Of a stretch of 64,000 nt of DNA, positions 718 to 14,339 are shown piece after piece. The stretch is from Promethearchaeia archaeon (GTDB lineage Archaea; Asgardarchaeota; Lokiarchaeia; Sigyniarchaeales; SOKP01), in contig JAHQWK010000028.1 of assembly GCA_029856145.1 (NCBI GenBank), positions 1 to 64,000 on the forward strand. The letters are read 5' to 3'. Within the stretch, counting starts at the first letter, position 1; the number at the start of each line of letters is the position of its first letter. A model generated the notes under the pieces. The model searched no databases, was not told where the DNA came from, and worked only from the letters and a program-made list of their open reading frames with translations. A program made the translations under genes and the position numbers.

Positions 718-1347
718 TTATAGTTCAGAGGCTTCTTTTAATCCAATATATTTATTCCAGGAGTTAAAGAAAGCATGCATATAGATATAAGAATTAATGA
801 GTTCAATTACATAGGATTTTCCTTCATCCGTTATTTCTATCGCATATCTTGGTCTAAACCGTTTATCCTTGAATTTTTTTTTTTGTAGGATCAATACATG
901 ACCACAATTTTCACAGAAATCAGGCAAATAATAAAAGGGAGTACCACAATGAGGACATTTTTCAATTTTAAATATTAATCCTTGTTCTCCTAATTTATCT
1001 ATAAGAGTTTTTGCTTCTTGAGTAGTACAAGGTTTTTGCCAGGACATTCGTTTAATTATGGTTTTAAGTGATATTGTATGGTTATTATGGGATTCCCTAA
1101 AAATCTCAAACATTATTTTCTCTTTGTTAGTTAATAATTTTTCAAGATAGAAAAGTTCCTTGAAAAGATCTTTTAGAGTGGTTTTTTTGGACACGAGAGA
1201 AAGCTTCATAACAAGTTTGCTTAACTCTAATGTTTTATCACATAATCTTTCAATAATATCTGGCACGCTGCTTGTTTTTATATTTAACTTGGAACTAACT
1301 AATCTTAATTTTTCGATTATTTTCGTATCTAAAGCAATGCGTGCCAT
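718..1347 (-). CDS. Winged-helix DNA-binding protein with inserted Zn ribbon
   Basis: CPHC...CENC motif inside a wHTH-like region ending in EITDEGKSY (typical wing/recognition end). Confidence 0.6.
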   Translation of the reverse strand: MARIALDTKIIEKLRLVSSKLNIKTSSVPDIIERLCDKTLELSKLVMKLSLVSKKTTLKDLFKELFYLEKLLTNKEKIMFEIFRESHNNHTISLKTIIKRMSWQKPCTTQEAKTLIDKLGEQGLIFKIEKCPHCGTPFYYLPDFCENCGHVLILQKKKFKDKRFRPRYAIEITDEGKSYVIELINSYIYMHAFFNSWNKYIGLKEASEL

Positions 1348-1588
1348 TTTCTTCTTTCCTAAATTAAATCTGAAAAATAAATTTGTGAATTTTTGTTATA
1401 ATATTGAAAAAAACTAAAAATTTCTATTAGATTTCTTTTTATAATAGTTATTGTAATTCTAACTCTGTATTTTTTTCTAACTTTATAAAATATCTTAGAA
1501 ATAATAAAAAAAGCTAAACATATAAACTTTCATCAATTATCCAACCAACATGGGACTGTAATTTAATGTTGTGGCTGCTAAAAATGAT

Positions 1589-1813
1589 TTAATCACTCCT
1601 TTCATCGAAAAACTTTTTAATGGATTTCTGCTCTCGAAGTTTTTCCAAGTGATAATGTTTGTCTATTAACTTTTCGATCCTAATTCTTATAGCTTCAATT
1701 ATAAATTCATGATGACTTCTATAACCGAAGTAAGGAAATAGAATGTACATATTTTCAACTAATATCTCTGGAATTTGTATATTCTTGTATTTTGTTTTGA
1801 GTTTTCCTGTCAG
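1589..1813 (-). CDS. Ribbon-helix-helix (CopG/Arc-like) regulator, 74 aa, probable CTG start; absent from ORF track
   Basis: Translates (L/M)TGKLKTKYKNIQIPEILVENMYILFPYFGYRSHHEFIIEAIRIRIEKLID...; matches the RHH pattern beta(NIQIP)-helix-GYxSxxEFIxxAIR; GGTGA SD-like motif 6 nt upstream of CTG. Confidence 0.75.
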   Translation of the reverse strand: MTGKLKTKYKNIQIPEILVENMYILFPYFGYRSHHEFIIEAIRIRIEKLIDKHYHLEKLREQKSIKKFFDERSD

Positions 1814-1864
1814 TTGGAATCACCATTTTCTTTAAATTTTTTCATAAAATTTTTCTTTTTCACC

Positions 1865-2530
1865 TTATAATTTATAATTTTTATACCATCTTTTTTGAAA
1901 GAGTAGACTTTCATTCAATAAACAATTTCTATTGTGGGAGATAATCTCGTCAAATTTTTGAGCATTGAATAATTGATTGACTAATTTGTTATTTCGAAAT
2001 AAGGAATCCCCTGTCAATATCGCTGAATTGGGATTTATTGAATAAAATGCTTCTGTTAGAGATTCATATCTATAGTTTTCTTTTTGAAGGTTGATTATTG
2101 GAAATTCTTTAATAAAACTAAATTCAGAGACATAATCTCCCTGTACTTGTAAGTAGTGATACATATTCAAAAGTTTGATTCGCTCATAATTACTAAATGC
2201 AAAAAAGGTGAGATCTTTTGCTAATTGTAGTACGTTAAATATTAATTTGTAAAACTTGATTTTATGACACCATTCTTCAATGTAATAAGTGAATATAATA
2301 TTTTGAATCATTATACCACACATAAAAACTGGAGAACCCTTAAAATCAATTATCGCAATTTTCAAATTCTTAGGCAAAGGATGATGTTCTTCTTCCAAAA
2401 GTTGTTTTTTGATGAATTTTACTTTTGGATCTCTCTCTACATTCTCTAAATTTATAATAATTGGAGTGAAATCATATTGACTATTAATTCGATATGCTAT
2501 ATTCCATTTTTGCATCTCATTTACCTCCAT
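1865..2530 (-). CDS. RNase H-like/DEDD (YprB-like) exonuclease-fold protein, probably catalytically degenerate
   Basis: IAIIDFK (ExoI-like DxE with E->K), FAFSNYE, IINLQ, EIISHNRNCL (HNxxD-like with D->C); inferred from motif spacing. Confidence 0.45.
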   Translation of the reverse strand: MEVNEMQKWNIAYRINSQYDFTPIIINLENVERDPKVKFIKKQLLEEEHHPLPKNLKIAIIDFKGSPVFMCGIMIQNIIFTYYIEEWCHKIKFYKLIFNVLQLAKDLTFFAFSNYERIKLLNMYHYLQVQGDYVSEFSFIKEFPIINLQKENYRYESLTEAFYSINPNSAILTGDSLFRNNKLVNQLFNAQKFDEIISHNRNCLLNESLLFQKRWYKNYKL

Positions 2531-3672
2531 ACTTCAGTTACCTTTTGTTCTTCACTTATTTGGTAGAATTCACGTATAAATTTTATTGAGGAAAAATATA
2601 ACTTACTGATAAAATGGATTGTTTTAATTAACTGTTCCTCTTTCCCTTCAGAACATTGCTCATGTGTGAGTTCACTTAGGTAATGACATACAAGATCTAT
2701 CAAACAGGAAGAATCCTTGTAAAATTCATTCACACGATCAATTTGCTCTATCGTAAGATGTGTCTCTTTATCTAAAATTACTTGACTCAATATGGTATAT
2801 CCCACTATATTGAAAATCTCTTGAGTTTGTTTAAGAAAGTTGCTAAATTGCATTTCATTTTGAAATAATTTAATTAAATTATCTTCATTTTCTCCCAAAA
2901 ATATTTCAGTTTTTAAGTTAAAGAAGAATTCAATGTAGTAGTACGTGTTAAGCAAGTGTTTGAATAGAGGAAAACTAATTTTTTTATGAACTAGGTGTAG
3001 TTCAATTAAATTAATCATCTCATCTCTATTTTCAATCTGTAATCTTATTGCCATATTCTTAATAAAATTAATAAAATTCTCTTTATCTTCACTTTCAAAA
3101 TGTTCCATAAGATCTTGGACATATGCATAAAAACATCTAAGTTCGAAGAATCGATACCAGAAGCTGAAACTTTTTGGAGATCTCATAATAGAATAAATTG
3201 TTCCAAATCTAAGTAACGTAGCTAACGCAGGAAGTAATTTGTCTGGGCGTAAAAGATTTTTTATATGAGCCCTTGTAATTATATTTGGTTTTTGTAAAAA
3301 AAGCTCAACATCATCATCTTTAAATTTCTGGATAACGTTTTCTAATTTCGCATCTTCTTTTACATTTTCATATTCCAAATATCTTTCACAAATTTTATTT
3401 ATTCTCATATCTGAAATTGGAATAGACACTAATTTGGAAGAGGGATGTGGACTAAATAACCGAAATACTCCTCTACTCATGCTTGAACAATCAAGAAGTA
3501 TTGCTAATCGATTCTTAGCATCAACTGATAAGCGAAATAGTTGATATGGATATAATATCCGTAATTTTCGGCGGATTTCTAAAGGTATTTCAATTTGCTC
3601 CCGATATACTGTATAAAGTAAGAGGGACTGAAGAAGAGATTTAGCGAACTTTTTGCCATAAATACTTCGCAA
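2521..3672 (-). CDS. Hypothetical all-helical protein, possibly 5'-truncated
   Basis: 383-aa ORF overlapping the next gene; TTG start only 27 bp from the divergent giant ORF. Confidence 0.55.
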   Translation of the reverse strand: MRSIYGKKFAKSLLQSLLLYTVYREQIEIPLEIRRKLRILYPYQLFRLSVDAKNRLAILLDCSSMSRGVFRLFSPHPSSKLVSIPISDMRINKICERYLEYENVKEDAKLENVIQKFKDDDVELFLQKPNIITRAHIKNLLRPDKLLPALATLLRFGTIYSIMRSPKSFSFWYRFFELRCFYAYVQDLMEHFESEDKENFINFIKNMAIRLQIENRDEMINLIELHLVHKKISFPLFKHLLNTYYYIEFFFNLKTEIFLGENEDNLIKLFQNEMQFSNFLKQTQEIFNIVGYTILSQVILDKETHLTIEQIDRVNEFYKDSSCLIDLVCHYLSELTHEQCSEGKEEQLIKTIHFISKLYFSSIKFIREFYQISEEQKVTEVWR

Positions 3673-3699: not shown

Positions 3700-6600
3700 A
3701 TGTATTCAGGAGAGTATTATGACGCCTATACTGAGAACAAGGAAGACCTTACTGATCTATACGACTATTATCAACCCCATATTGCGAACTTCAGCTATCT
3801 TTACGTTTCATGGGCAGATGATAATGCGTGGAAAGAATGGCACACCATAGAAGCTCCAAATGTTGATATCAGCACCTTAGATATTATGTTTGAGTGGTAT
3901 GATGATACTTCGGAGGAGTACGATTCTGTATATTATAACCAGACGCTTAATGAATTTGAAGCCAGAAATATAGCTGTTGAGATTGTATACCCATATGATA
4001 AAAATATACAAACTGCAAATTTTACCTTATCACAGGACTACTCTAGCGCCCAAGACCTCGATATTATGCTGATTAAAGGGTACTTTTTCAACGAAACTGG
4101 GAAAGATTTTGATCCAGATAATGTAAATATATACTCAAGTGAAAAATTAATTGAAATTTCAGCTCCAAGTGGATATACATTAGATAATTTTGAGAAAATT
4201 ATTATTTATCTTAACTTCACAGAGGGGGCATATTCAGATTATACCCAATTTAGATTTTTACAAGCTGCTATTAATAATAATCCTGAAGTTCCATTATGGA
4301 CCAAGAATGATTCGCTCTATGTGGACTTTGAATACAATGATATTGATTACTTCCTCCTTATGGAAGAGTATGCAGTTGGATCTGAAGATTCTATGTTTGA
4401 ATATTTTGCTTACACGAGAAATAATAAGTTTGTAGATTATGATGATGTTGATACGACCTATTCATTAGATAAGATAGAGCAGTATCAAGATTTCGATAAC
4501 TTCACAAAAGTTAACGATCCAAAGACATTGCTAGAGTTCTTTGATTTTGATGAGGATTGTACCCATGAGCTCGTAATCCAGAAGGATGATATCACCCAGA
4601 ATGGAGTCTATGATAGTTTCAAATATGGCTACATCAACCCAGCGGGAGAGATTACGTTCCATACGCTTGTCCAAGAAGTAGCAACTACAGAAGTTCATAC
4701 TGATAAAGTAAATGATGTAAGAAAGACTGAGAGATACTCTATTGATAGTAAAGATCCCGAATATATAACGACTGCTCAGCGTACCATTATCACTAATAGC
4801 ACAATAACTTATAGAATACAGAAGCTAACCACTTTAATTCAAAAAGATGATGATTATGATGGATATATTGATCATGAAGTATCCTATGAGCAGACCTTTT
4901 ACAGCTCATATACAGTTCTTTACTCCACAGAAGTTACTTATATTCATTTCAAACTAAGAGACGGTTCTGAGAACTTAGAAGGTGGTCAAGAAGAATATGA
5001 GGGATACTTGACAGAATATAGGAATTCCACACATATTATTTCCGATTCAAGTATGTCCTATGCGTTTAGAGATTTCGAGTATGGTGAGGTTGTAAGCACC
5101 AGATATTATGATGATGTATTTCCAAACGAGTTATCGGAAGTATATAACTTAGACAATAATCTTGTGCCAGTTATCAATGATAATGGAGATGAAGATAGTT
5201 CCAATGATGTTATTACCTACGTTCCTGCCCTTGAGAATCTTTTATCCCTTTCCCATCCTAGAGATGGAATTCCAGCTATATTTGATAGAAGAATTATAAT
5301 TAACGGTTCTGTGGAATTTGATAATATTTTAGCAACTCAGAAAGTTATCTCAATTGCGGCTACTTATAATGAGGGTACAGGAATTAATGATTATTTAACC
5401 GAACAAAAGATTGTCGCTGATGTTATCGAGGTGGTTCCAGAAACGGGAGTATATTATGATAACGTCCGAGGATATGCTCCAGATAACCTTGAAGGGTATA
5501 GATACCTTTACTATGATGAAGATGGTGATGGTCTTCACAGTACAATCTTTATTGCCGACTCAGATGGCGAAGTGGTCGGAATTGGCTTCGATTACGATGG
5601 AAACTCCTATTTCGAGCCTCATAAGGTCATGATTACAGAGAAACATATTATTACAAGTGCGGCTACCGCAGATGATGACATAGCTTTGAAAATGACATTA
5701 AAATATACCGGTCATGAATCAATTAATTATCAAGATACTGACAGTTATGATGGCATGTTTGTAGAGCCTACATTCAGAGATTCTTTATTTGATATCTGGA
5801 AATCGCAATATACAGGGACGTCCAGTGATTTAATCAGATTTGCGATGCGACTTACGCATCAAGTATTTATAGAATCTCTTTCTGCTGAGAAAATCATTGG
5901 AGATATCGCATGGCAAGTAGTTTCACAATTAACGGCATTTGTAGTTGGAAAGGTCACGGGAATAGCTTTGACTGGTATAATAGGAGCATGTACTTCAATA
6001 GGCTCGGCGTGGCCAGGTTTCGGGACTGCAATTGGTTTTATTGTCGGTATGCTTATGTATTGGCTTTTAAACTCTGCTATGGCAGTTGCGCAGCAAAAAG
6101 AGATAAACAACTATTTAGCTTCTCAGACCACTTATAACGAGGAATATCAAGACACCAAGACGCTCTCGGATAAGTGGTGGATGGATAGATATTTTGGCGA
6201 TATCATGCCAAATACACTTCAAGGAAGTAAGGCAGGAGTCTATACTCCAGTAAAAGCTGAGACGGACAAGCATATATATGAGGGAGAGGTTATTCTTGCC
6301 CCTGCTCATATCGAGAAGACGACCGTTTTCGGCACTCAATTTAACCCACTATTATTAGATTATTCGCAGCAGACACGATCTTATCTGCAATATTCGGATT
6401 TTGATGATCCCCTGTTGATGTCATTCTTCAATCAAGATATAGAGGAATTTTATGGAATATCTATTGAGCAACTTCCAATATTAGATAGCTTAGATCTCAC
6501 TCAACCCCATGATCTGCGAGCCCTTTACATGAGAAATTCCATTATGTACTTAGAAGATGAGATTTATAAGGCAACTGAAAACGATCCTGAAGATAGTATT

Positions 6601-9600
6601 TCATATGATCGCATTATTCCGTACATGGTTGGCGTGAGACCCTCATTACAGTTTATCGATTCTGATACAGTTTTAGCTCCAGAGTTTTACCTTGACTATC
6701 CTATTTATGTAGATCATGAACAATATGGCGCTCTTGAAGAAGAATATTATCACATTTACAAAGTCTATAATGGCACTACAGATATCATACAGTTGATCCC
6801 CGAAGATACTGTGGAGAATCGCTTAATTATGTCAGATATCGTGAATATTGTGCCTTACTATGTAGATTCACTGGGAAATCAACTTCCACTTTTGGACATT
6901 GACTATATTCCGGAATTTATTTTTAATGCAATTACAGGAGAAGTAATTTTAAATTCAAGTTTTACAATACTTTTAGAAGAACGTCTTGCTGATATGGAAG
7001 ATCTATATAACAATGTTGAGGGGTACGAAGGTCATATTATTCTCGAATTTTGCATAGAAAAATATAGGGATATTTCCGTGGAGAGAGATGACATCACACC
7101 AGAAGAAGCTTATCAAATTGCGACCATGCAATCTGCCCACCAAGCGATTTTAGAATACACATACCAATTTACCATTGCGGAACAGACTCAGCAGAGACTT
7201 TCCGAGGCATGTTACACCATATTTGTCACTATTATTAGTACTCTTATTGTAATGGGCGCTACGATTGTAATTGACAAAGCATTTAGTAAATTAGCTAATA
7301 ATCTATTTGATAAGTTAGATGATGCGATTCAAGCAGGGACTGCTGGAAAAAGGCTAGCTAATCTTTATAATAATATGAATGCAGGAGAATTATTCAATAG
7401 CCTTCTTAATCCCGTATCTAGAGGTCTTGGATATAACATGTTTAAAATCACGAAAGCGCTGATTTCTGAAAGTATTCAAGAAGTATTTGTTGACCCCTGG
7501 ATTGAAGCCTACGTTACCAACGCGGTAGCAGATCTTGGTTGGGACGAGACAGCACAAATATACCTCAGTGGGCTTGCTGAGACCGGGCGTGAGTTCCTTT
7601 TCAGCGCAGTCACTCAGTTTATGTGGGCAAGTGTGAGGCCCCAAACTTCGCTGAACCTTCAGAATATAGCTGCTCAGCAGCAACTGACCATAGAGCAGAT
7701 GAATGAGATGAGGCAACAAACACAAGAAGCTCAAATTCAGAAAGATAATCGGAAAGATTATATCCGTGACAGCTTCTTCACGGTGATGATGTTTATGGGT
7801 GCGATGATGGGAGGCTTCGGTGGGTCAATCGGCATGACTATTGGAAATCTTATGATTGTCGGCGGTGATTCAGCTGACAGTTTATTTGAATTGAAGGATG
7901 CCGTTAAAGATATTTTAGAATCAAGACACCAAGAAGTTCGAGTCCACTTTGATGCTAAGATTGCTGACACACTTAGAGCAGAGATTGCTATGAAAAATTG
8001 GATTGATGAAGATCTGAGAGAAGCAATAGATTGGGCTACTCTTAGTGAACCGCAAAAGCAAGAGCAAATTGAGTATGAATATATCCCATCCAATTTTGAA
8101 GTATGGGCAGATATGGTAAGCCGCTCTCGATTGTTGGGTACACCAGTAGGAATGCACCTAATGCCAGGCGATCCAAATAATTATATCGCACAACGTTTCC
8201 CACGATTGCCCCAGTATTTAGGTGATAATGTCTTTAGATCTATATTAAGAGAAGTTCTGAACTTCCTAGATCAAGAGTCGGAGAATATTATGAGAGACAC
8301 AAATGGCATGACTGAACAAGAAGCATTAAATTATATTACTAGAAATGCAATGCAATACTTGCATAGTGAAAAAGCAGATTTAATGGACAGTTTATCTCGA
8401 CAAGATGAATCAAAGCCTAACAAGATCGCTCCCAAGGTGAAAATTTACATTTCTGTCATTTATTTATTAAAGTTCACTAACAAATTAGTGAATCAGATAC
8501 ATAGATCTATTTCGGGTGTTAAGCATCAATACATTAAATTCGTCAAGGATTATCTTGAACTTTCTGCTCCAGAGAGGTTCACTTATAATATTAAAAACAT
8601 CGAAGATATGTTAAATTCAATTGATTATGAATTGGTTTCACCATTGACTCAGAGGGAATTCGATTTATTGGAAGGTGATTCATCAGCCAAAAGAATTAAA
8701 ATAAAGTGCCCAGAAGGTCATGAATATTTTACAAATCCTTCAAGTATAAAAAACAAGATGCTTAAAGGTGAAGGATTATGTCAAAAATGTTATCATAAGT
8801 CAAGAAGGGTGTATACTTTTGAAAGTATAGTACAAGAAGTAGGTGAACGGGAAGATTTAATAATTTTTCCAAAGACTCAGGAAGATTGGGATTCAATAGG
8901 AGGATTTCCTTCTGACAGAAAGATTAAGGTTAAGTGTGGTCAATGTGGTGAGGAAAGAGAGTGTATGGCAAAGACATATTTCGAATATGAACGTTGCCCA
9001 AGTTGCTTTCATATAGACGCTTCGCTTTCTTATGAGACGGTTAGAGATAGGGGATTAAATGAAGGATTTAGGTTAAAGACTCCTAAAGTAAAGTTTAATA
9101 AGATAAAAGCTTCCTATGCTCTTGATGGTACTAAGACTTGGGCGACAGAAGGTTTAGAATGGAAATGTCTAGATTGTGAAGAAATTGTTAAAATAACTTT
9201 TCAAAGTATAAGAGATGCTAGAACTGGATGCCCTTCGTGTAAGATGTCAGAACATCAGAAACATAGTCATAAATATTTAGAAGCAACATTTGATTCACCA
9301 TTTGAATCAGAGAAGAGGTTAGGTGATATTGATTTAGATGAGATTGGGGTATCACCTTCAGGTTCCTTATTTAGTCCAAATCTTGTGTTTGACGGATATG
9401 CAATAGTTCGAATTCCAGGTTGCTCAACACCTATCCCAGTACTTTTTGAAGCTCGTGGTTATCAATATTGGCATTGGCCGAATCAGTACTTTAAAGGGAC
9501 ATATGAGGATTTTCTAGCTTGGCAGCATTATAGGGCAAATGCTGAGCAGAAAAATAGATTTGCTCATGAACATAAAATAGTACTTATTTCGATTTACGAG

Positions 9601-9756
9601 GAAAAATTATGGACTAGAGCCCAAGTCAGGTCAGAACTTATTCGTCAATTTAAATTGCAAACTAAAGCTTACGGATACTCTGAAGATGGAATAACCTTAG
9701 ATCCACCTGAATATAATAATTTTATTTTTAGGAGAAGATTCTTAGGTTTAATTTAA
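3700..9756 (+). CDS. Giant acidic protein with Ca-binding-like motifs, Gly-rich hydrophobic helices and C-terminal Zn ribbons plus Vsr/PD-(D/E)xK-like nuclease domain (polymorphic-toxin-like)
   Basis: 2018-aa ORF; DxDxDG-type motifs; three hydrophobic segments; C-terminal CPEGH/CQKC, CGQC/CPSC, CLDC/CPSC and FDGY...FEARGYQYWH. Confidence 0.65.
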   Translation: MYSGEYYDAYTENKEDLTDLYDYYQPHIANFSYLYVSWADDNAWKEWHTIEAPNVDISTLDIMFEWYDDTSEEYDSVYYNQTLNEFEARNIAVEIVYPYDKNIQTANFTLSQDYSSAQDLDIMLIKGYFFNETGKDFDPDNVNIYSSEKLIEISAPSGYTLDNFEKIIIYLNFTEGAYSDYTQFRFLQAAINNNPEVPLWTKNDSLYVDFEYNDIDYFLLMEEYAVGSEDSMFEYFAYTRNNKFVDYDDVDTTYSLDKIEQYQDFDNFTKVNDPKTLLEFFDFDEDCTHELVIQKDDITQNGVYDSFKYGYINPAGEITFHTLVQEVATTEVHTDKVNDVRKTERYSIDSKDPEYITTAQRTIITNSTITYRIQKLTTLIQKDDDYDGYIDHEVSYEQTFYSSYTVLYSTEVTYIHFKLRDGSENLEGGQEEYEGYLTEYRNSTHIISDSSMSYAFRDFEYGEVVSTRYYDDVFPNELSEVYNLDNNLVPVINDNGDEDSSNDVITYVPALENLLSLSHPRDGIPAIFDRRIIINGSVEFDNILATQKVISIAATYNEGTGINDYLTEQKIVADVIEVVPETGVYYDNVRGYAPDNLEGYRYLYYDEDGDGLHSTIFIADSDGEVVGIGFDYDGNSYFEPHKVMITEKHIITSAATADDDIALKMTLKYTGHESINYQDTDSYDGMFVEPTFRDSLFDIWKSQYTGTSSDLIRFAMRLTHQVFIESLSAEKIIGDIAWQVVSQLTAFVVGKVTGIALTGIIGACTSIGSAWPGFGTAIGFIVGMLMYWLLNSAMAVAQQKEINNYLASQTTYNEEYQDTKTLSDKWWMDRYFGDIMPNTLQGSKAGVYTPVKAETDKHIYEGEVILAPAHIEKTTVFGTQFNPLLLDYSQQTRSYLQYSDFDDPLLMSFFNQDIEEFYGISIEQLPILDSLDLTQPHDLRALYMRNSIMYLEDEIYKATENDPEDSISYDRIIPYMVGVRPSLQFIDSDTVLAPEFYLDYPIYVDHEQYGALEEEYYHIYKVYNGTTDIIQLIPEDTVENRLIMSDIVNIVPYYVDSLGNQLPLLDIDYIPEFIFNAITGEVILNSSFTILLEERLADMEDLYNNVEGYEGHIILEFCIEKYRDISVERDDITPEEAYQIATMQSAHQAILEYTYQFTIAEQTQQRLSEACYTIFVTIISTLIVMGATIVIDKAFSKLANNLFDKLDDAIQAGTAGKRLANLYNNMNAGELFNSLLNPVSRGLGYNMFKITKALISESIQEVFVDPWIEAYVTNAVADLGWDETAQIYLSGLAETGREFLFSAVTQFMWASVRPQTSLNLQNIAAQQQLTIEQMNEMRQQTQEAQIQKDNRKDYIRDSFFTVMMFMGAMMGGFGGSIGMTIGNLMIVGGDSADSLFELKDAVKDILESRHQEVRVHFDAKIADTLRAEIAMKNWIDEDLREAIDWATLSEPQKQEQIEYEYIPSNFEVWADMVSRSRLLGTPVGMHLMPGDPNNYIAQRFPRLPQYLGDNVFRSILREVLNFLDQESENIMRDTNGMTEQEALNYITRNAMQYLHSEKADLMDSLSRQDESKPNKIAPKVKIYISVIYLLKFTNKLVNQIHRSISGVKHQYIKFVKDYLELSAPERFTYNIKNIEDMLNSIDYELVSPLTQREFDLLEGDSSAKRIKIKCPEGHEYFTNPSSIKNKMLKGEGLCQKCYHKSRRVYTFESIVQEVGEREDLIIFPKTQEDWDSIGGFPSDRKIKVKCGQCGEERECMAKTYFEYERCPSCFHIDASLSYETVRDRGLNEGFRLKTPKVKFNKIKASYALDGTKTWATEGLEWKCLDCEEIVKITFQSIRDARTGCPSCKMSEHQKHSHKYLEATFDSPFESEKRLGDIDLDEIGVSPSGSLFSPNLVFDGYAIVRIPGCSTPIPVLFEARGYQYWHWPNQYFKGTYEDFLAWQHYRANAEQKNRFAHEHKIVLISIYEEKLWTRAQVRSELIRQFKLQTKAYGYSEDGITLDPPEYNNFIFRRRFLGLI

Positions 9757-9810
9757 AAGAATTTTATTGATTAAATAAATATTTATACTAAAAATAATCT
9801 AGTATACTAG

Positions 9811-10431
9811 ATGAAACCTATACAGTTTTCGAAAGATTTCGCATGTTGCCATCACAAATATCTTCCATGTCGGTTTGGATATCGTGATGATGATGTTTAT
9901 AGATGCAGTTATCATCGATTAATGGTGTTGGCTAAATGGATAAATAATGACGATTATACTGCAACCAAATTACTTAATCAAGCATGCCAACCTATTAGAG
10001 ATGAAGAATCCTTCTCAAAATATTTAGCGAAAATGCATAAAGAATATGCCAAAGATATTATAGAGAATGCAAGTATAGGAGATATGATTTTTTGCTTTGA
10101 TGAAACTAATAGCGAAGTTATTTTATTAGAAAAACCAGAGACAGATACAGGTCTTTGCGTTTATAGAGCTTGTACAGGAGAGATACGTTCTAGACCAGTT
10201 AGGCTTTTTCGAACAATCTCTCAAGGGAATTATATAGCAGAATATTTACTCGAAGGAGAAAAAAGCGAAATTGAATCCTTAATGATTAAACGCATGGCTC
10301 TTGAAGCTGGTTTTCGAGTTGAAATTCATAAGACTGATTCTGGACACATGGTAAAAATATTTGGAGATACCCAACGAGAAGTCGATGATTTTATGACTAT
10401 GTGTGTCTATAATAAATTCATGCTTTATTAG
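9811..10431 (+). CDS. Hypothetical Cys/His-rich protein; candidate immunity/partner of the giant protein
   Basis: 206-aa ORF 54 bp downstream of and co-oriented with the giant ORF. Confidence 0.55.
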   Translation: MKPIQFSKDFACCHHKYLPCRFGYRDDDVYRCSYHRLMVLAKWINNDDYTATKLLNQACQPIRDEESFSKYLAKMHKEYAKDIIENASIGDMIFCFDETNSEVILLEKPETDTGLCVYRACTGEIRSRPVRLFRTISQGNYIAEYLLEGEKSEIESLMIKRMALEAGFRVEIHKTDSGHMVKIFGDTQREVDDFMTMCVYNKFMLY

Positions 10432-10538
10432 TTTCAATTTATTTTTATTTAACCTTTTTTTACGGTCATTTTGAGTTCATTTTAGAATTTGGGAGTCTTT
10501 ATTAACTTTAAAGTTTAAAAAATATGAGGAGAATAACC

Positions 10539-12029
10539 CTAATCCATTCCGAGCATCGCTCTCATGCCAGGATATTGTGCCGCAGCGAGCTCTTTCGAAA
10601 TTTGTTCGGCATATTGGTGAATAATACCTATTGCTATAAGAAGACCCGTGCCAGAAGTCAACGCTCCTAGACTGTCTGCTCCAAAACTTAAACATGCTAT
10701 AATAAATCCGTTTAGAATGACGAGAGTCGGTATGTACCTTTTAAGAATTCTTTCAATTATTTTTGCAGAGCTTCTAAATCCAGGGATTTGCATTTTTGAA
10801 TCTAATATTTGTTGAGCTATATCACGCGGCGCGAGTCCTGAAACCTCAACCCAGACACGGCCGAGCATCACACATAGAAATATAAATATCACTAGATAAA
10901 TAACAGCTCGAAGAGGATTTGCTGCTAATTCTCCAAGTCCTATTGGGGGCGTGAGTAAATATATTAATCCTCCTGTTGGAACAAGCTGAGTGCCTTGAAC
11001 TGCCCCCCCCGTTACAGGATTAAATACGCCTATTAAATCAACCCAGAAATCGGGGAACGGGCCTCCGTTAATTGCACGTAGCGCAGAGTCAGGTCCAGCA
11101 AATAATTGTCCAAAGAATAGAATATTTGCGTACAATGCATTGACTAAAATGACAGGAATGTTGGAAACATAAAGTAATTTCATTGGATATTTACTTTTAA
11201 AGCCTCGACTACCACGATATGCAAGTGGTATCTCAACACGTGTTGACTCGAACCAAATTACGATCAAGAATATAGCTATAGTAGTAATTATACCTAGTAG
11301 CGAGGGATAATTAGCTCGGGTAAAAAGTGCTCCCAGTTGACCCAAGTTGTCGGGGTTGGCATCAAACAATGCCGTAAAGAAGGCTATGACAATTCCTCTG
11401 GGTAAACCATCTCCTCCATCAGCCACACTAGGTGTAGGAACAAAACTAAAACAATTCCAAAAGATTTGTCCAGCAACACCTGCAGCTATGAATAAGGATA
11501 CACCACTTCCAAGCCCCCAACCTTTCTGGAGGACTTCATCTAGTAATATAATAATTATTCCTGCGAACAATAATTGGAAAAAAACAAAGAATCCTTCTGC
11601 AAGGCCTAAAGAACCAAAAGCTCCACCAAAAATATAAGCTGTAGCATTGAAGATTGTTAAAAATATAGCAAGGACTTTTTGAGCTCCGCTAAACATCGCT
11701 CTATCGTATGGATCTGCCATGTTCACGTTTATTATTCGGGAACCCAGAAGTAATTGCATAATAAGACCAGATGTTACTATTGGTCCTATACCTAATTCTG
11801 TTAACATTCCCCTTTGACTAGCAAGAATAACTCTTAACCAATAAAAATAATCTGTGGATTCTTCAATCTTTATTCCATATAGCGGAATATTACTCATGAT
11901 CAAGTAAATTATCAAGACTATAGCGGTCCAGATAAATTTCTCTTTAAAAGCAACTTCGCGTTGTGGCTGTTTAATTTCCGGCATCACCTTTACAAATGGA
12001 GTAAAGAATTTAAGGAATTTTCCAGCCAT
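10539..12029 (-). CDS. secY: Preprotein translocase SecY/Sec61alpha
   Basis: ELGIGPIVTSGLIMQLL, KGWGLGSGVSLFIAAGV, YPMKLLYVSNIPVIL, IPGFR motifs. Confidence 0.98.
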   Translation of the reverse strand: MAGKFLKFFTPFVKVMPEIKQPQREVAFKEKFIWTAIVLIIYLIMSNIPLYGIKIEESTDYFYWLRVILASQRGMLTELGIGPIVTSGLIMQLLLGSRIINVNMADPYDRAMFSGAQKVLAIFLTIFNATAYIFGGAFGSLGLAEGFFVFFQLLFAGIIIILLDEVLQKGWGLGSGVSLFIAAGVAGQIFWNCFSFVPTPSVADGGDGLPRGIVIAFFTALFDANPDNLGQLGALFTRANYPSLLGIITTIAIFLIVIWFESTRVEIPLAYRGSRGFKSKYPMKLLYVSNIPVILVNALYANILFFGQLFAGPDSALRAINGGPFPDFWVDLIGVFNPVTGGAVQGTQLVPTGGLIYLLTPPIGLGELAANPLRAVIYLVIFIFLCVMLGRVWVEVSGLAPRDIAQQILDSKMQIPGFRSSAKIIERILKRYIPTLVILNGFIIACLSFGADSLGALTSGTGLLIAIGIIHQYAEQISKELAAAQYPGMRAMLGMD

Positions 12030-12341: not shown

Positions 12342-12635
12342 TTAAAATAATGAGCCAATCCCTGTAGGTTCCTCTTCTTCTTTAGCTTCCTCTTTTTTCT
12401 TCTTTTCTCCTTTTTTCTTCTCAGCAGTACCTCCTGCTGGAGCAGCAGTTACAGGTATAGTGCTAGCAGATTTTATAATATCCTCAATCTTTGTTCCTTT
12501 TAGACCAGCAATTAGTTTTGTGATTTCTGTTTTATCAACTTTCGCACCTGCGGCAGTTAATACCTTTTCTACGTTTGCTTCGGTAATTTTACCTCCAGTT
12601 TTATGGAGTAATAAAGCTGCATAAATACTTTCCAT
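12342..12635 (-). CDS. rpl12p: Ribosomal stalk protein P1/L12p
   Basis: MESIYAALLLH...EEEEPTGIGSLF. Confidence 0.97.
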   Translation of the reverse strand: MESIYAALLLHKTGGKITEANVEKVLTAAGAKVDKTEITKLIAGLKGTKIEDIIKSASTIPVTAAPAGGTAEKKKGEKKKKEEAKEEEEPTGIGSLF

Positions 12636-12712
12636 ATTATCTAACCTCTTTTTTATTTTTTTATCATTATATTTGTAATTTTAATTGAAATTTAAAAAAA
12701 AATCTTAATTTT

Positions 12713-13606
12713 CTATCCAAACAATCCTCCAATACCAACATCTTCCTTTTCTTCTTCCTTTTCAGGTTCTTTTTCTTCGACTTTAGGCTTTTCTTTCTTT
12801 ATTTGAACTTGGATTCCTTCCCCGAAAATAATAGAATTTAATACACTAGCTTCAGAAGCAGCTTTTCGAATATAATCCTCTTTCATATCTTCCAAGAAGA
12901 ATGGCATCTCGAATAAAATTGCAAGTGCTTCTCTATAAGCTGTAGCAACGTCTTGTTCAAATTTTTCTATATCCATGTATAATATTTCCTCAGGTATTAT
13001 TTCACCATCACACCATGCAAAGTGAATTTTAATTAAGGATTCTATTGGTGTAATTCCTAATTTTTTCAAAACTGCTGCTTGTTTAACATTAACTAAATCA
13101 CCAGTTTTATGTGTTCTTGTATCTTCTCGAATATATATAGTATCATTCATAATTCTCGTTGGCAATCGTAAAGTCATGTTTAATTCACTAATAACTTGTC
13201 CTGTTGGTAAACCTGTATCTCCCGCGGGGACCCAAATATCTACAGGGGTGATTTCGTTTGGCTTTGCTGGAACCATCCACTCATTTTTCATAAAGATCTT
13301 CTTTAATTCAAATAGATCAAGATTAGTAAAAACAAGACTTGATTGACCTGGGATGTGATCTGCTAATTCATCTAAACTTTTCTTTTTGGCTTCACTTTTA
13401 TATTGTTCTATTGCGCGGAGTTGAAGTGATTTTTTGGACATTCTGAATACTGCTTTTCCTCTTAAAATTTTACGCATAGTTTGAATTTGCATATCATTAA
13501 TATGTGCAACTTCAATAACAATAATATTTTTGTAATTTCTAAATAAATCAACTAAATGATTAATTTCATCAATTTTCCATTGTGGTATATGTTTATTTTT
13601 AATCAT
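12713..13606 (-). CDS. rpl10: Ribosomal protein uL10/P0
   Basis: IPQWKIDE, VPAGDTGLPTG, C-terminal GIGGLFG; operon context. Confidence 0.97.
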   Translation of the reverse strand: MIKNKHIPQWKIDEINHLVDLFRNYKNIIVIEVAHINDMQIQTMRKILRGKAVFRMSKKSLQLRAIEQYKSEAKKKSLDELADHIPGQSSLVFTNLDLFELKKIFMKNEWMVPAKPNEITPVDIWVPAGDTGLPTGQVISELNMTLRLPTRIMNDTIYIREDTRTHKTGDLVNVKQAAVLKKLGITPIESLIKIHFAWCDGEIIPEEILYMDIEKFEQDVATAYREALAILFEMPFFLEDMKEDYIRKAASEASVLNSIIFGEGIQVQIKKEKPKVEEKEPEKEEEKEDVGIGGLFG

Positions 13607-13610
13607 AAGT

Positions 13611-14339
13611 TCACACCTCGATAGTTTTTAGGAATTCTTCTGTTACATTTACAGATTTTCCCATTGTAGATTTAAGATACATCGATTTAAAATTATTGAA
13701 CCTATGAGGCATTTGATCTGCTATGAAATTTACGATAGTCTTCATGTTTTCAAATAATTTGTCTATACTCATAGTTTTCTTACCAATCTTAGCGAAAATA
13801 ATAGGTTGTTTTTTCATTTGAATTCTAATGATTTTTTTATATCGTTCATAAGCTGTTTTTAAATCTTCAGGACTAGAAATAATTCCATATCCCGTAGGGA
13901 AAGGTTTTGGCATTTTACCAACAGGTCCAAGAAATCTTGCTAAATATCGAGCAACATCTCTCATCATTTTATCTTCTACAACAAAGTAATCATATTTTTT
14001 AGCAAATTTTTTCTTGGATTTTTTCTCTTCACTATTTAATTTAACCAAACCGTCTGAATCGATAGTATCAACCCCTAGTTTTTTTGCTTCTAGTAATATC
14101 TCATCAGACGCAATCACACAAATATTTGGTTTATCATTCGTAACTATTTCATTCGATAAGATAATCTCTTTATCAATTCGGTTTTTTGGATCATTTAAGT
14201 TAACATCTTTAATATTGATGATAAGATCAATGGACTCATCAAATTTTCTTACTTTATCTTTAAAGCCTTCTTTTTTTATTACTGAAAAATCAATAGCAGC
14301 ATCTAATGATCTTCTTAATAATTTATCATCTACTTTCAA
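13611..14339 (-). CDS. rpl1: Ribosomal protein uL1
   Basis: RKFDESIDL, LGPVGKMPKP, KSTMGKS. Confidence 0.97.
   Translation of the reverse strand: MKVDDKLLRRSLDAAIDFSVIKKEGFKDKVRKFDESIDLIINIKDVNLNDPKNRIDKEIILSNEIVTNDKPNICVIASDEILLEAKKLGVDTIDSDGLVKLNSEEKKSKKKFAKKYDYFVVEDKMMRDVARYLARFLGPVGKMPKPFPTGYGIISSPEDLKTAYERYKKIIRIQMKKQPIIFAKIGKKTMSIDKLFENMKTIVNFIADQMPHRFNNFKSMYLKSTMGKSVNVTEEFLKTIEV

Follow-up and report, generated by a model that had tools for sequence, protein, structure and literature searches.

Bacterial polymorphic toxins such as CdiA-CT/CdiI and Rhs combine a very large conserved protein with exchangeable tails and small partner genes. Few polymorphic toxin systems have been described from archaea, and those were taken as imports from bacteria; the same survey lists leucine-rich repeat (LRR) proteins among the immunity proteins (Zhang et al. 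2012, PMC3482391). The VARTIG modules of Thermococcales encode a large surface protein that recombination has made hypervariable in its C-terminal part, with variable genes downstream, and their authors liken the modules to polymorphic toxin systems (PMC8416519). The aloposons of Heimdallarchaeum carry the giant proteins Otus and Ephialtes, encoded by tandem genes for 3,000-6,000 amino acids (aa), and integrate at a tRNA gene downstream of the giants, with four conserved upstream genes including one for a MinD/ParA-like ATPase (PMC8813620). Here we analyzed a 64,000-nucleotide (nt) stretch, hereafter the window, at the start of contig JAHQWK010000028.1 (contig 28) of a Promethearchaeia archaeon (assembly GCA_029856145.1), which contains the large open reading frame (ORF) P0001 and, directly downstream, the small ORF P0002. 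With a probability of roughly 0.6, we read P0001 as a member of a family of giant membrane proteins of Promethearchaeia that follow the logic of polymorphic toxins, the nuclease tail of the window and P0002 forming one type of cassette among several. The two genes and the segments of P0001 are listed below with their positions in the window and their strand (TM, transmembrane segment; pI, isoelectric point).

3700-9756, +: P0001 ORF, 2,018 aa, member of the giant-protein family, 5'-truncated
3700-5898, +: acidic Tyr/Asp-rich region, aa 1-733, no Pfam family
5908-6090, +: Gly-zipper-like hydrophobic hairpin TM1-TM2, aa 737-797
6097-7194, +: alpha/beta domain, conserved, aa 800-1165, flanked by TM2 and TM3, with the conserved motif PEFYEDYPI
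7201-7272, +: TM3, aa 1168-1191, the most hydrophobic of all segments (Kyte-Doolittle 2.4)
7285-7773, +: conserved helical region, aa 1196-1358
7774-7866, +: Gly/Met-rich hydrophobic segment, TM4 or re-entrant, aa 1359-1389, modeled with low confidence
7870-7932, +: boundary motif SADSLFELKDAVKDILESRHQ, aa 1391-1411
7933-8706, +: start of the variable tail, largely helical, aa 1412-1669
8707-8790, 8935-9006 and 9166-9240, +: three treble-clef zinc ribbons of the DUF4379 type (CxxC...CxxC units)
9235-9687, +: Vsr-like PD-(D/E)xK nuclease domain, aa 1846-1996, predicted from model and alignment
9811-10431, +: P0002 ORF, 206 aa, soluble, pI 5.9, without a signal peptide; the gap between the two ORFs is 54 nt

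Comparison with Described Systems

The giant family shares several traits with the bacterial polymorphic toxins: the very large conserved protein with a sharp boundary and unrelated tails in near-identical paralogs, the small co-directional partner that co-varies with the tail and may be an LRR or another soluble protein, the detached or decayed tail-partner cassettes, and a restriction-endonuclease fold as one type of tail. Unlike these systems, it has no detectable homology to CdiA, Rhs, MafB, LXG or the Tox- and Imm- families of Pfam, has four hydrophobic segments beside the tail, and lies in no type V, VI or VII secretion system context. The family is probably built on polymorphic-toxin logic, without detectable homology to the bacterial systems. 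The VARTIG modules are built from immunoglobulin (Ig) domains and no enzymatic tip has been named for them; in the giant family, in contrast, Pfam detects no Ig domain, the proteins are much larger and nuclease-type tails are included.

The first-pass annotation of this DNA, made from the sequence alone, had likened P0001 to the giant genes of aloposons. Both are giant Asgard genes of obscure role, but the likeness did not hold on any of the three features that were tested. The window has a single giant ORF, and the four paralogs of the genome are on four contigs instead of in tandem. No tRNA gene is present at window positions 1-30000, where the downstream neighbor is secY. No match to a MinD/ParA-type ATPase was obtained for the three ORFs at 718-3672 or the ORF at 3-521; a ParB_N protein is found at the contig-7 locus instead. 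An integrase was not seen at the P0001 locus either. Judged on these locus features, P0001 was rejected as an aloposon.

A Conserved Core with Exchanged Tails

Four members of the family are encoded in the genome of the window, on contigs 28, 8, 9 and 7. The contig-7 member has 12,736 aa, and the members on contigs 8 and 9 are open frames of at least 3,377 and at least 1,676 aa that run off the contig ends. Positions 3649-7931 of contig 28 are 93.7% identical in DNA to contig 8, and positions 4937-7931 are 89.8% identical to contig 9. Both blocks of identity end exactly at 7931, just past the fourth hydrophobic segment; the three copies share ...GGDSADSLFELKDAVK(D/G)ILES(R/K)HQ and thereafter have nothing in common. 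An exhaustive search of 1.8 billion proteins with P0001 aa 300-1440 resulted in 136 representative matches, and the core module was present in 32 out of 154 genomes of the order (Promethearchaeota), in open frames of up to 14,833 aa. When everything after the fourth hydrophobic segment was taken as the tail, 66 representative tails formed 30 clusters and the tails of 43 complete genome loci formed 27. The only Pfam match among the 30 tail representatives was LAGLIDADG (LAGLIDADG_3), found in three of them, and the other 27 matched no Pfam family. The pattern proposed as a check in the first-pass annotation, conserved N-terminal and middle regions with variable C-termini, was recovered in the homologues, whose last ~600 aa are wholly different. 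From these comparisons, the core of the family is conserved, while its last ~600 aa are exchanged between copies by recombination.

The segments of P0001 upstream of the boundary agree with their earlier description. An acidic Tyr/Asp-rich stretch of ~730 aa with DxDxDG-like loops had been noted, and aa 1-733 indeed have a pI of 4.1 and contain 11% Asp, 8% Glu, 9% Tyr and 6% Lys plus Arg, with the strings DDDYDGYID, DEDGDGLH and DYDGNSY at aa 383, 606 and 631, respectively. The Gly/Ala-rich hydrophobic helices reported at the same time were located at 5908-6090, 7201-7272 and 7774-7866. The AlphaFold2 model of aa 730-1440 (predicted local distance difference test (pLDDT) 75, predicted template modeling score 0.69) displays a hydrophobic helical hairpin, a confident alpha/beta domain at aa 800-1165 with pLDDT values mostly of 85-95, and very long helices. 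The most conserved residues of the family (E..E..FxDP..E ... AE(S/T)GRE) are in the helical region, aa 1196-1358, and distant members have a weak S-x-[LI]-K-D-x-F version of the boundary motif at the same spot. The ESM Atlas offered no usable neighbor for either the core or P0002.

Two further observations concern the paralogs. In the contig-8 giant protein, a strongly hydrophobic stretch is present at aa 2722-2757, ~70 aa past the swap point, and some tails may be membrane-active rather than nucleases. The contig-7 giant protein has ~13 membrane segments at aa 200-1216, followed by a soluble region of ~10,000 aa.

The Nuclease Tail of P0001

The tail of P0001 had been described as more basic and more AT-rich than the rest. 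In agreement with this, aa 1601-1850 have a pI of 7.95, being less acidic, and the guanine-cytosine (GC) content drops to 0.31-0.36 compared with 0.35-0.45. The first part of the tail, aa 1412-1669, is common only to P0001, P0020 and P0004, at 45-50% identity; P0020 is a 2,457-aa protein of another organism that has the same core and the same tail type end to end. The three zinc-ribbon units and the nuclease signature claimed for the tail were both confirmed, the former as three CxxC...CxxC units and the latter by a predicted Vsr-like fold. For DUF4379 (PF14311), P0001 itself reaches 17.1 bits (E 0.006), which is below the Pfam cut-off of 24.5, while 9 out of 20 nuclease homologues match at E ≤ 0.05, the best of them at 4.8e-5. 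In the PDB, a profile search reached mitoribosomal proteins with DUF4379 (E 0.004), and an 'endonuclease' family of PHROG matches the zinc ribbons (E 2.6e-9). A putative role of the zinc ribbons is DNA binding.

Sequence searches assigned no nuclease family to the domain: no Pfam nuclease family, Vsr and DUF559 included, was found for the 168-aa domain at E ≤ 10 or for the 20 homologues at E ≤ 0.05, and PDB sequence searches with the P0001, contig-8 and contig-9 tails resulted in nothing usable. To get an idea of the fold, aa 1601-2018 were modeled using AlphaFold2 (mean pLDDT 81.7). Foldseek found no match to the model in the PDB at E ≤ 1e-3, and the weaker matches were PD-(D/E)xK nucleases and DUF4379 mitoribosomal proteins. 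In an exhaustive VIA-align search, the first match was E. coli Vsr (1cw0_A) with a Z of 8.6 and a root-mean-square deviation of 2.8 over 113 aa (model residues 246-388). It was followed by the RAP domain of FASTKD4 (9gek_A, Z 8.3), the homing endonuclease I-Bth0305I (3r3p_B, 7.4), the DUF559-like NGO0050 (3hrl_A, 6.9) and a long list of other PD-(D/E)xK enzymes. All matches span model residues ~246-396, corresponding to P0001 aa 1846-1996. The Z of 8.6 alone would be borderline, but because the match list is uniform and the whole domain is covered, the assignment of a Vsr-like PD-(D/E)xK fold to the modeled aa 1846-1996 can be considered safe.

Nuclease homologues were gathered from related genomes and protein collections, and 20 of them were aligned. 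The family consensus is FDGY...AFEYxGxQH...RDxxK, with the D and the E invariant; the family motif D...E-x-x-G-x-Q-H...RD resembles the DUF559-type motif. The three strings singled out in the first-pass annotation are at P0001 aa 1894, 1914 and 1951. P0001 keeps the family-invariant D1898 and E1917 as well as Q1922 and K1951, and R1919 occupies the K position of the classical D...ExK motif. The earlier caution that the QH and RD residues deviate was justified by the family alignment, P0001 having QY and NA. FEARGYQY and NA are common to P0001, P0004, P0005, P0020 and a remnant in genome G067, and the changed residues are invariant within this P0001 subfamily, at 45-61% identity. The domain is thus like Vsr, DUF559, RAP and I-Bth0305I nucleases in its predicted fold, and unlike them in following three zinc ribbons, in being fused to a giant membrane protein and in having Y for H, NA for RD and R for the Lys of ExK.

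Among known toxin families, Tox-REase-5 has the published signature 'Y, FDG, EAK, Y, Q, W' and is paired with Imm52 (PMC3482391, Table 2). The P0001 subfamily resembles it in FDGY ... FEARGYQYW and in the use of a restriction-endonuclease fold as the tip of a polymorphic toxin, and differs in that R replaces K and P0002 has no Imm52 match. Membership in Tox-REase-5 (PF15648) was not supported, as neither the P0001 domain nor the 20 homologues gave a hidden Markov model match.

Partner Genes and the Nuclease-P0002 Cassette

A co-directional ORF of at least 100 aa that starts at most 500 nt past the stop codon of the giant gene, mostly after 10-200 nt, was found in 34 out of 43 loci, and nearly all of these partner ORFs are without a signal peptide or TM segment. 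LRR proteins account for 19 of the 34 partners, including that of the contig-9 gene. Where the partner is not an LRR protein (15 loci), loci with a common partner cluster invariably have a common tail cluster as well (8 pairs vs. 0; permutation p ~1e-4, a value that is overstated since related genomes are not independent). The co-variation of downstream gene and tail that the first-pass annotation had put forward as a check is therefore seen among these 15 loci. When the LRR partners were pooled with the others, the association fell short of significance (p = 0.07), as LRR proteins group together regardless of specificity.

P0002 had been called an orphan, which turned out to be incorrect. Its family has matches in 29 of the 154 genomes and a second full copy in the genome of the window, and 20 close database relatives are all annotated as hypothetical. 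No match to Imm52 or any other family was found for P0002 in Pfam, NCBIfam, PHROGs or PADLOC. In 10 loci, the Vsr-like domain is directly followed by a gene of the P0002 family, and the linkage is seen in four giant genes from three genera, that is, in the window and at G098:C4, G139:C19 and G039:C153. The latter three genes keep the QH residues; two of them also keep RD and G098:C4 has ND.

The pair also exists detached from any giant gene. On contig 9 of the window's own genome (C9:552610-554107), a 273-aa nuclease (552610-553428) is followed by a 210-aa partner, and nuclease remnants of 82-144 aa precede intact partner genes in genomes G067, G048, G050, G058 and G060. Conflict cassettes typically decay in this way, losing the nuclease and keeping the partner. 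The same nuclease/partner pair can thus be seen fused to a giant gene, free-standing and at several stages of decay. We regard P0002 as the partner that belongs to the nuclease domain and as a candidate inhibitor or immunity protein. In the window, the next gene downstream of P0002 is the following.

10539-12029, -: secY, convergent with P0002

In genomes G067 and G062, a nuclease-P0002 cassette is situated between secY and a 204-aa gene. At the SecY locus L104 of a third species, only a partner remnant of 40 aa is left, and the other 62 SecY loci are without the cassette; of 66 species, just 3 to 4 have it downstream of secY.

Some observations on this region and on the nucleases stand on their own. 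The secY gene of the window comes after the L11-L1-L10-L12 genes, and the adenylate-kinase-sized 204-aa gene that comes after secY in relatives is missing in the window. All relatives of this SecY are labeled as metagenome-assembled genomes of Promethearchaeota/Promethearchaeia, and the assignment of the contig to Loki-type Asgards is therefore sound. In the composition profile of the secY region, the GC content is 0.40-0.41 at 10501-11500 and 0.36 at 11501-12000. Unfused nucleases of 450-860 aa with zinc ribbons and a Vsr-like domain are common in the archaeal family (L014-L017, L022; G020, G054, G087, G096, G076). At L014-L017 and L022, they have no P0002-type neighbor within 1.5 kb on each side, and one is accompanied by SAP and helix-turn-helix (HTH) domains.

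Glycosylation Sites Are Purged from the Tails

N-x-S/T glycosylation sites (sequons) were counted and the expected numbers were obtained from shuffles. The tails of the 43 loci contain 2 sites compared with 237 expected, and those of the 66 representatives contain 1 compared with 235. Control motifs are normal in the same tails, with ratios of 0.93 for S/T-x-N and 0.95 for Q-x-S/T. The partner ORFs have 77 sites with 77 expected, and the genome ORFs of at least 300 aa have 4,462 with 4,310 expected, a ratio of 1.04. Along the family, in P0001 coordinates, sequons are enriched 1.9-2.4 fold over aa 1-300, reach a ratio of ~0.1 at aa 700-1000 and are at zero from aa 1200 to the end; the helical region at aa 1196-1358 has a single sequon family-wide vs. 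33 expected. The enriched aa 1-300 are therefore inferred to belong to a glycosylated outer stalk. Each of the four paralogs in the genome of the window is site-free over its last 933-1,086 aa. P0001 alone has 0 sequons with 2.7 expected, too few for significance. Eleven nuclease homologues that are not fused to the core, among them three short fragments, have 20 sites vs. 35 expected, and three are at expectation.

To our knowledge, there is no reason for a cytoplasmic segment to avoid N-x-S/T sites. The purge suggests that the tails are exported cargo, and in its simplest reading the tail and the preceding ~200 aa would pass the oligosaccharyltransferase outside the cell and would have been strongly selected to stay unmodified. 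Cargo that has to get into a second cell and fold there as an enzyme would be expected to behave in this manner. The idea of an exported scaffold, which the first-pass annotation had derived from P0001, is in this way indirectly supported as far as export of the tail is concerned, while no recognizable secretion or trafficking domain was found. As a marker of membrane-crossing segments that are kept unmodified, the sequon purge needs nothing but sequence and could be applied elsewhere.

A further depletion was noted outside the window in the same genome. A frame of 2,119-2,140 aa on contig 31 (22882-29301, -) has zero N-x-S/T sites with 5.8 expected and is the sole such depletion among 266 long ORFs. 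Strongly hydrophobic segments are missing from this frame, and BLAST showed no similarity to the giant family.

Proposed Explanation

In the explanation that we prefer, full-length members of the family, 3,000 to >14,000 aa in size, would begin with a long acidic stalk rich in glycosylation sites. Next would come a conserved module of ~700 aa, in which an alpha/beta domain and a helical domain are combined with four hydrophobic segments, then the short boundary motif and a tail of ~600 aa that is swapped between copies by recombination. Each tail would travel with its own small cytoplasmic partner gene 10-200 nt downstream. The tail would be exported past the oligosaccharyltransferase, released and taken up by a neighboring cell, where it would cut DNA, and sister cells would be protected by P0002, which most likely binds and neutralizes the tail. 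No description of this giant-protein family was found in the literature that was searched. The tails would represent a pool of mostly unclassified enzyme domains, each with a cognate binder.

We go beyond this only tentatively, and at somewhat less than even odds, in suggesting that Loki-type Asgards own a contact-dependent toxin-delivery weapon all of whose parts are undescribed. It would have a glycosylated stalk of at most ~14,000 aa, the sequon-free last ~800-1,000 aa as its cargo, and antidotes of the P0002 type and the LRR type. The cargo, consisting of the helical module, the Gly-rich hydrophobic segment and the tail, would be released, insert into the membrane of the neighbor and bring the nuclease inside. 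If this is true, the sequon-free zone marks the delivered part directly in the sequence. The surface biology of Asgards, which live tightly associated with partner cells, is relevant to models of eukaryote origin.

Several points weigh against the toxin-like interpretation of the family and of its window copy. The core model had no Foldseek match in the PDB at E ≤ 1e-3, and VIA-align resulted in helical-hairpin matches only, which were below Z 8 and uninformative. The topology is ambiguous, since the fourth hydrophobic segment has K/R-rich flanks on either side and the stretch following the third is K/R-rich as well. No secretion, release-protease or known toxin family of Pfam or NCBIfam was found in P0001, its paralogs or three homologues of 2,457-4,099 aa, and PADLOC had no match among the four family genes of the window's genome and their partners. 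For P0001 and its three sub-regions, P0002, and the paralogs' tails and partners, scans with Pfam, NCBIfam, PHROGs and PADLOC yielded only the weak DUF4379 match, the PHROG 'endonuclease' match, the LRR match of the contig-9 partner and LAGLIDADG in 3/30 tails. The LRR partners go with 14 tail clusters, and a generic cofactor would fit this as well as specific immunity does. Zinc ribbons are more usual in cytoplasmic proteins. In the active site of P0001, the family H is replaced by Y1923 and the family RD by N1947-A1948. In addition, P0001 is N-terminally truncated, its native N-terminus and promoter being lost at ~3650. Experimental characterization of predicted archaeal polymorphic toxin systems was, moreover, lacking according to PMC8416519.

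The truncation is due to a rearrangement, which also affects the neighboring gene.

3649-3651, strand not applicable: rearrangement junction with ~3 bp of microhomology
2521-3672, -: 383-aa ORF, truncated neighbor, no Pfam family, outside the toxin-like unit

To the left of the junction, the DNA is similar to contig 7 (73%), and to the right it corresponds to the giant gene of contig 8 (93.7%); both adjoining genes are cut short. On contig 7, a 778-aa protein has its gene 8.5 kb upstream of that for the 12,736-aa giant; the 383-aa ORF corresponds to the C-terminal half of this protein (aa 403-778, 77% identity). The first-pass annotation was correct in that the ORF at 3700-9756 is real, but as a giant protein P0001 is only a truncated copy: its ATG at 3700 is an internal Met in the contig-8 paralog. 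The latter extends at least 1,247 aa further upstream, and this extension is homologous to the contig-7 giant. Apparently complete homologues of ~2,000 aa (P0027 and P0023) begin near the start position of P0001. The ratio of nonsynonymous to synonymous substitutions (dN/dS) between P0001 and the contig-8 paralog is 0.14 (dN 0.029, dS 0.204; 1,410 codons), and P0001 has therefore been under purifying selection for most of its divergence. Because the N-terminal ≥1,247 aa are lost and the active site is derived, the window copy is probably a stored tail-plus-partner cassette and less likely a working weapon itself. Through a homology arm of 4.3 kb, it could recombine with the giant genes of contigs 8 and 9.

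Alternative Explanations

The alternative that survives best, although we consider it unlikely, is a cell-autonomous sensor-effector. The giant protein would be a surface receptor whose tail stays in the cytoplasm of the producer, restrained by the partner until a signal (virus, contact or damage) arrives, and the whole would be a defence, abortive-infection or signaling system. The partners are indeed cytoplasmic and Cys-rich zinc ribbons suit that compartment. The fourth segment, K/R-rich on both flanks, may be re-entrant and leave the tail inside, and no secretion or release domain was found. A partner kept beside a decayed nuclease would also fit toxin-antitoxin decay. We rank delivery above this alternative mainly because of the sequon purge, with a ratio of 0.01 in the tails and the preceding ~200 aa as opposed to 1.00 in the partners and 1.04 in the genome. 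The sequons carried by nuclease homologues that are not fused to the core (20 vs. 35 expected, three at expectation) and the absence of PADLOC matches likewise weigh against a sensor-effector.

A dead relic or an assembly chimera is still somewhat less probable. The 2,018-codon frame would then be non-functional, or an artefact of joining repeated giant genes, and P0002 would be a resident of the secY neighborhood. Both genes are truncated at the 3650 junction with an overlap of ~3 bp, contigs 8 and 9 both break off within the repeated gene, in G067 and G062 the secY-P0002 neighborhood is present although a giant gene is missing, and key active-site residues deviate from the family. On the other hand, 2,018 codons are open in AT-rich DNA, the dN/dS is 0.14 relative to a 94%-identical paralog, and an overlap of 3 bp would be too short for a join by a k-mer assembler. 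The same core and tail type are found end to end in P0020 of another organism, the derived residues do not vary among relatives of 45-61% identity, and the complete ~2,000-aa homologues P0027 and P0023 start near the same position.

The weakest alternative, a selfish homing-endonuclease cassette in which nuclease or LAGLIDADG tails lodged in frame at the 3' ends of giant genes spread by cutting alleles without them, with P0002 as a passenger or regulator and tail diversity as a by-product, could draw on the fold match to I-Bth0305I (Z 7.4), LAGLIDADG_3 in 3/30 tail representatives, the PHROG 'endonuclease' match on the zinc ribbons (E 2.6e-9), free-standing zinc-ribbon nuclease copies in many related genomes, the sharp recombination boundary at 7931 and the secY-downstream cassette in only 3 to 4 of 66 species, but is improbable considering that 27/30 tail representatives have no Pfam nuclease signature, that the tails are always in frame behind one conserved boundary motif, that a homing endonuclease needs no dedicated partner and yet P0002 follows the domain in 10 loci, and that the sequon purge would be unexplained.

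Surroundings of the Giant Genes

On contig 7, the genes for the 778-aa protein and the 12,736-aa giant flank those for a 455-aa ParB_N protein (12607-13971) and a NosD/beta-helix protein. Two of the giant-gene cassettes border on clusters of ribosomal or translocon genes: that of the window is next to secY, and on contig 8 (30867-32297) the gene string of ribosomal protein S3 comes immediately after the giant gene and its 153-aa partner. A 3,002-aa frame on contig 9 of the same genome (264211-273216, -) consists nearly entirely of hydrophobic helices and, with dozens of predicted membrane segments, is a predicted giant polytopic membrane protein. In the window, 210 bp at 731-940, inside a 209-aa zinc-ribbon/HTH ORF (718-1347, -), are 93% identical to contig 7:89804-90013 and represent either a dispersed repeat or a recent paralog.

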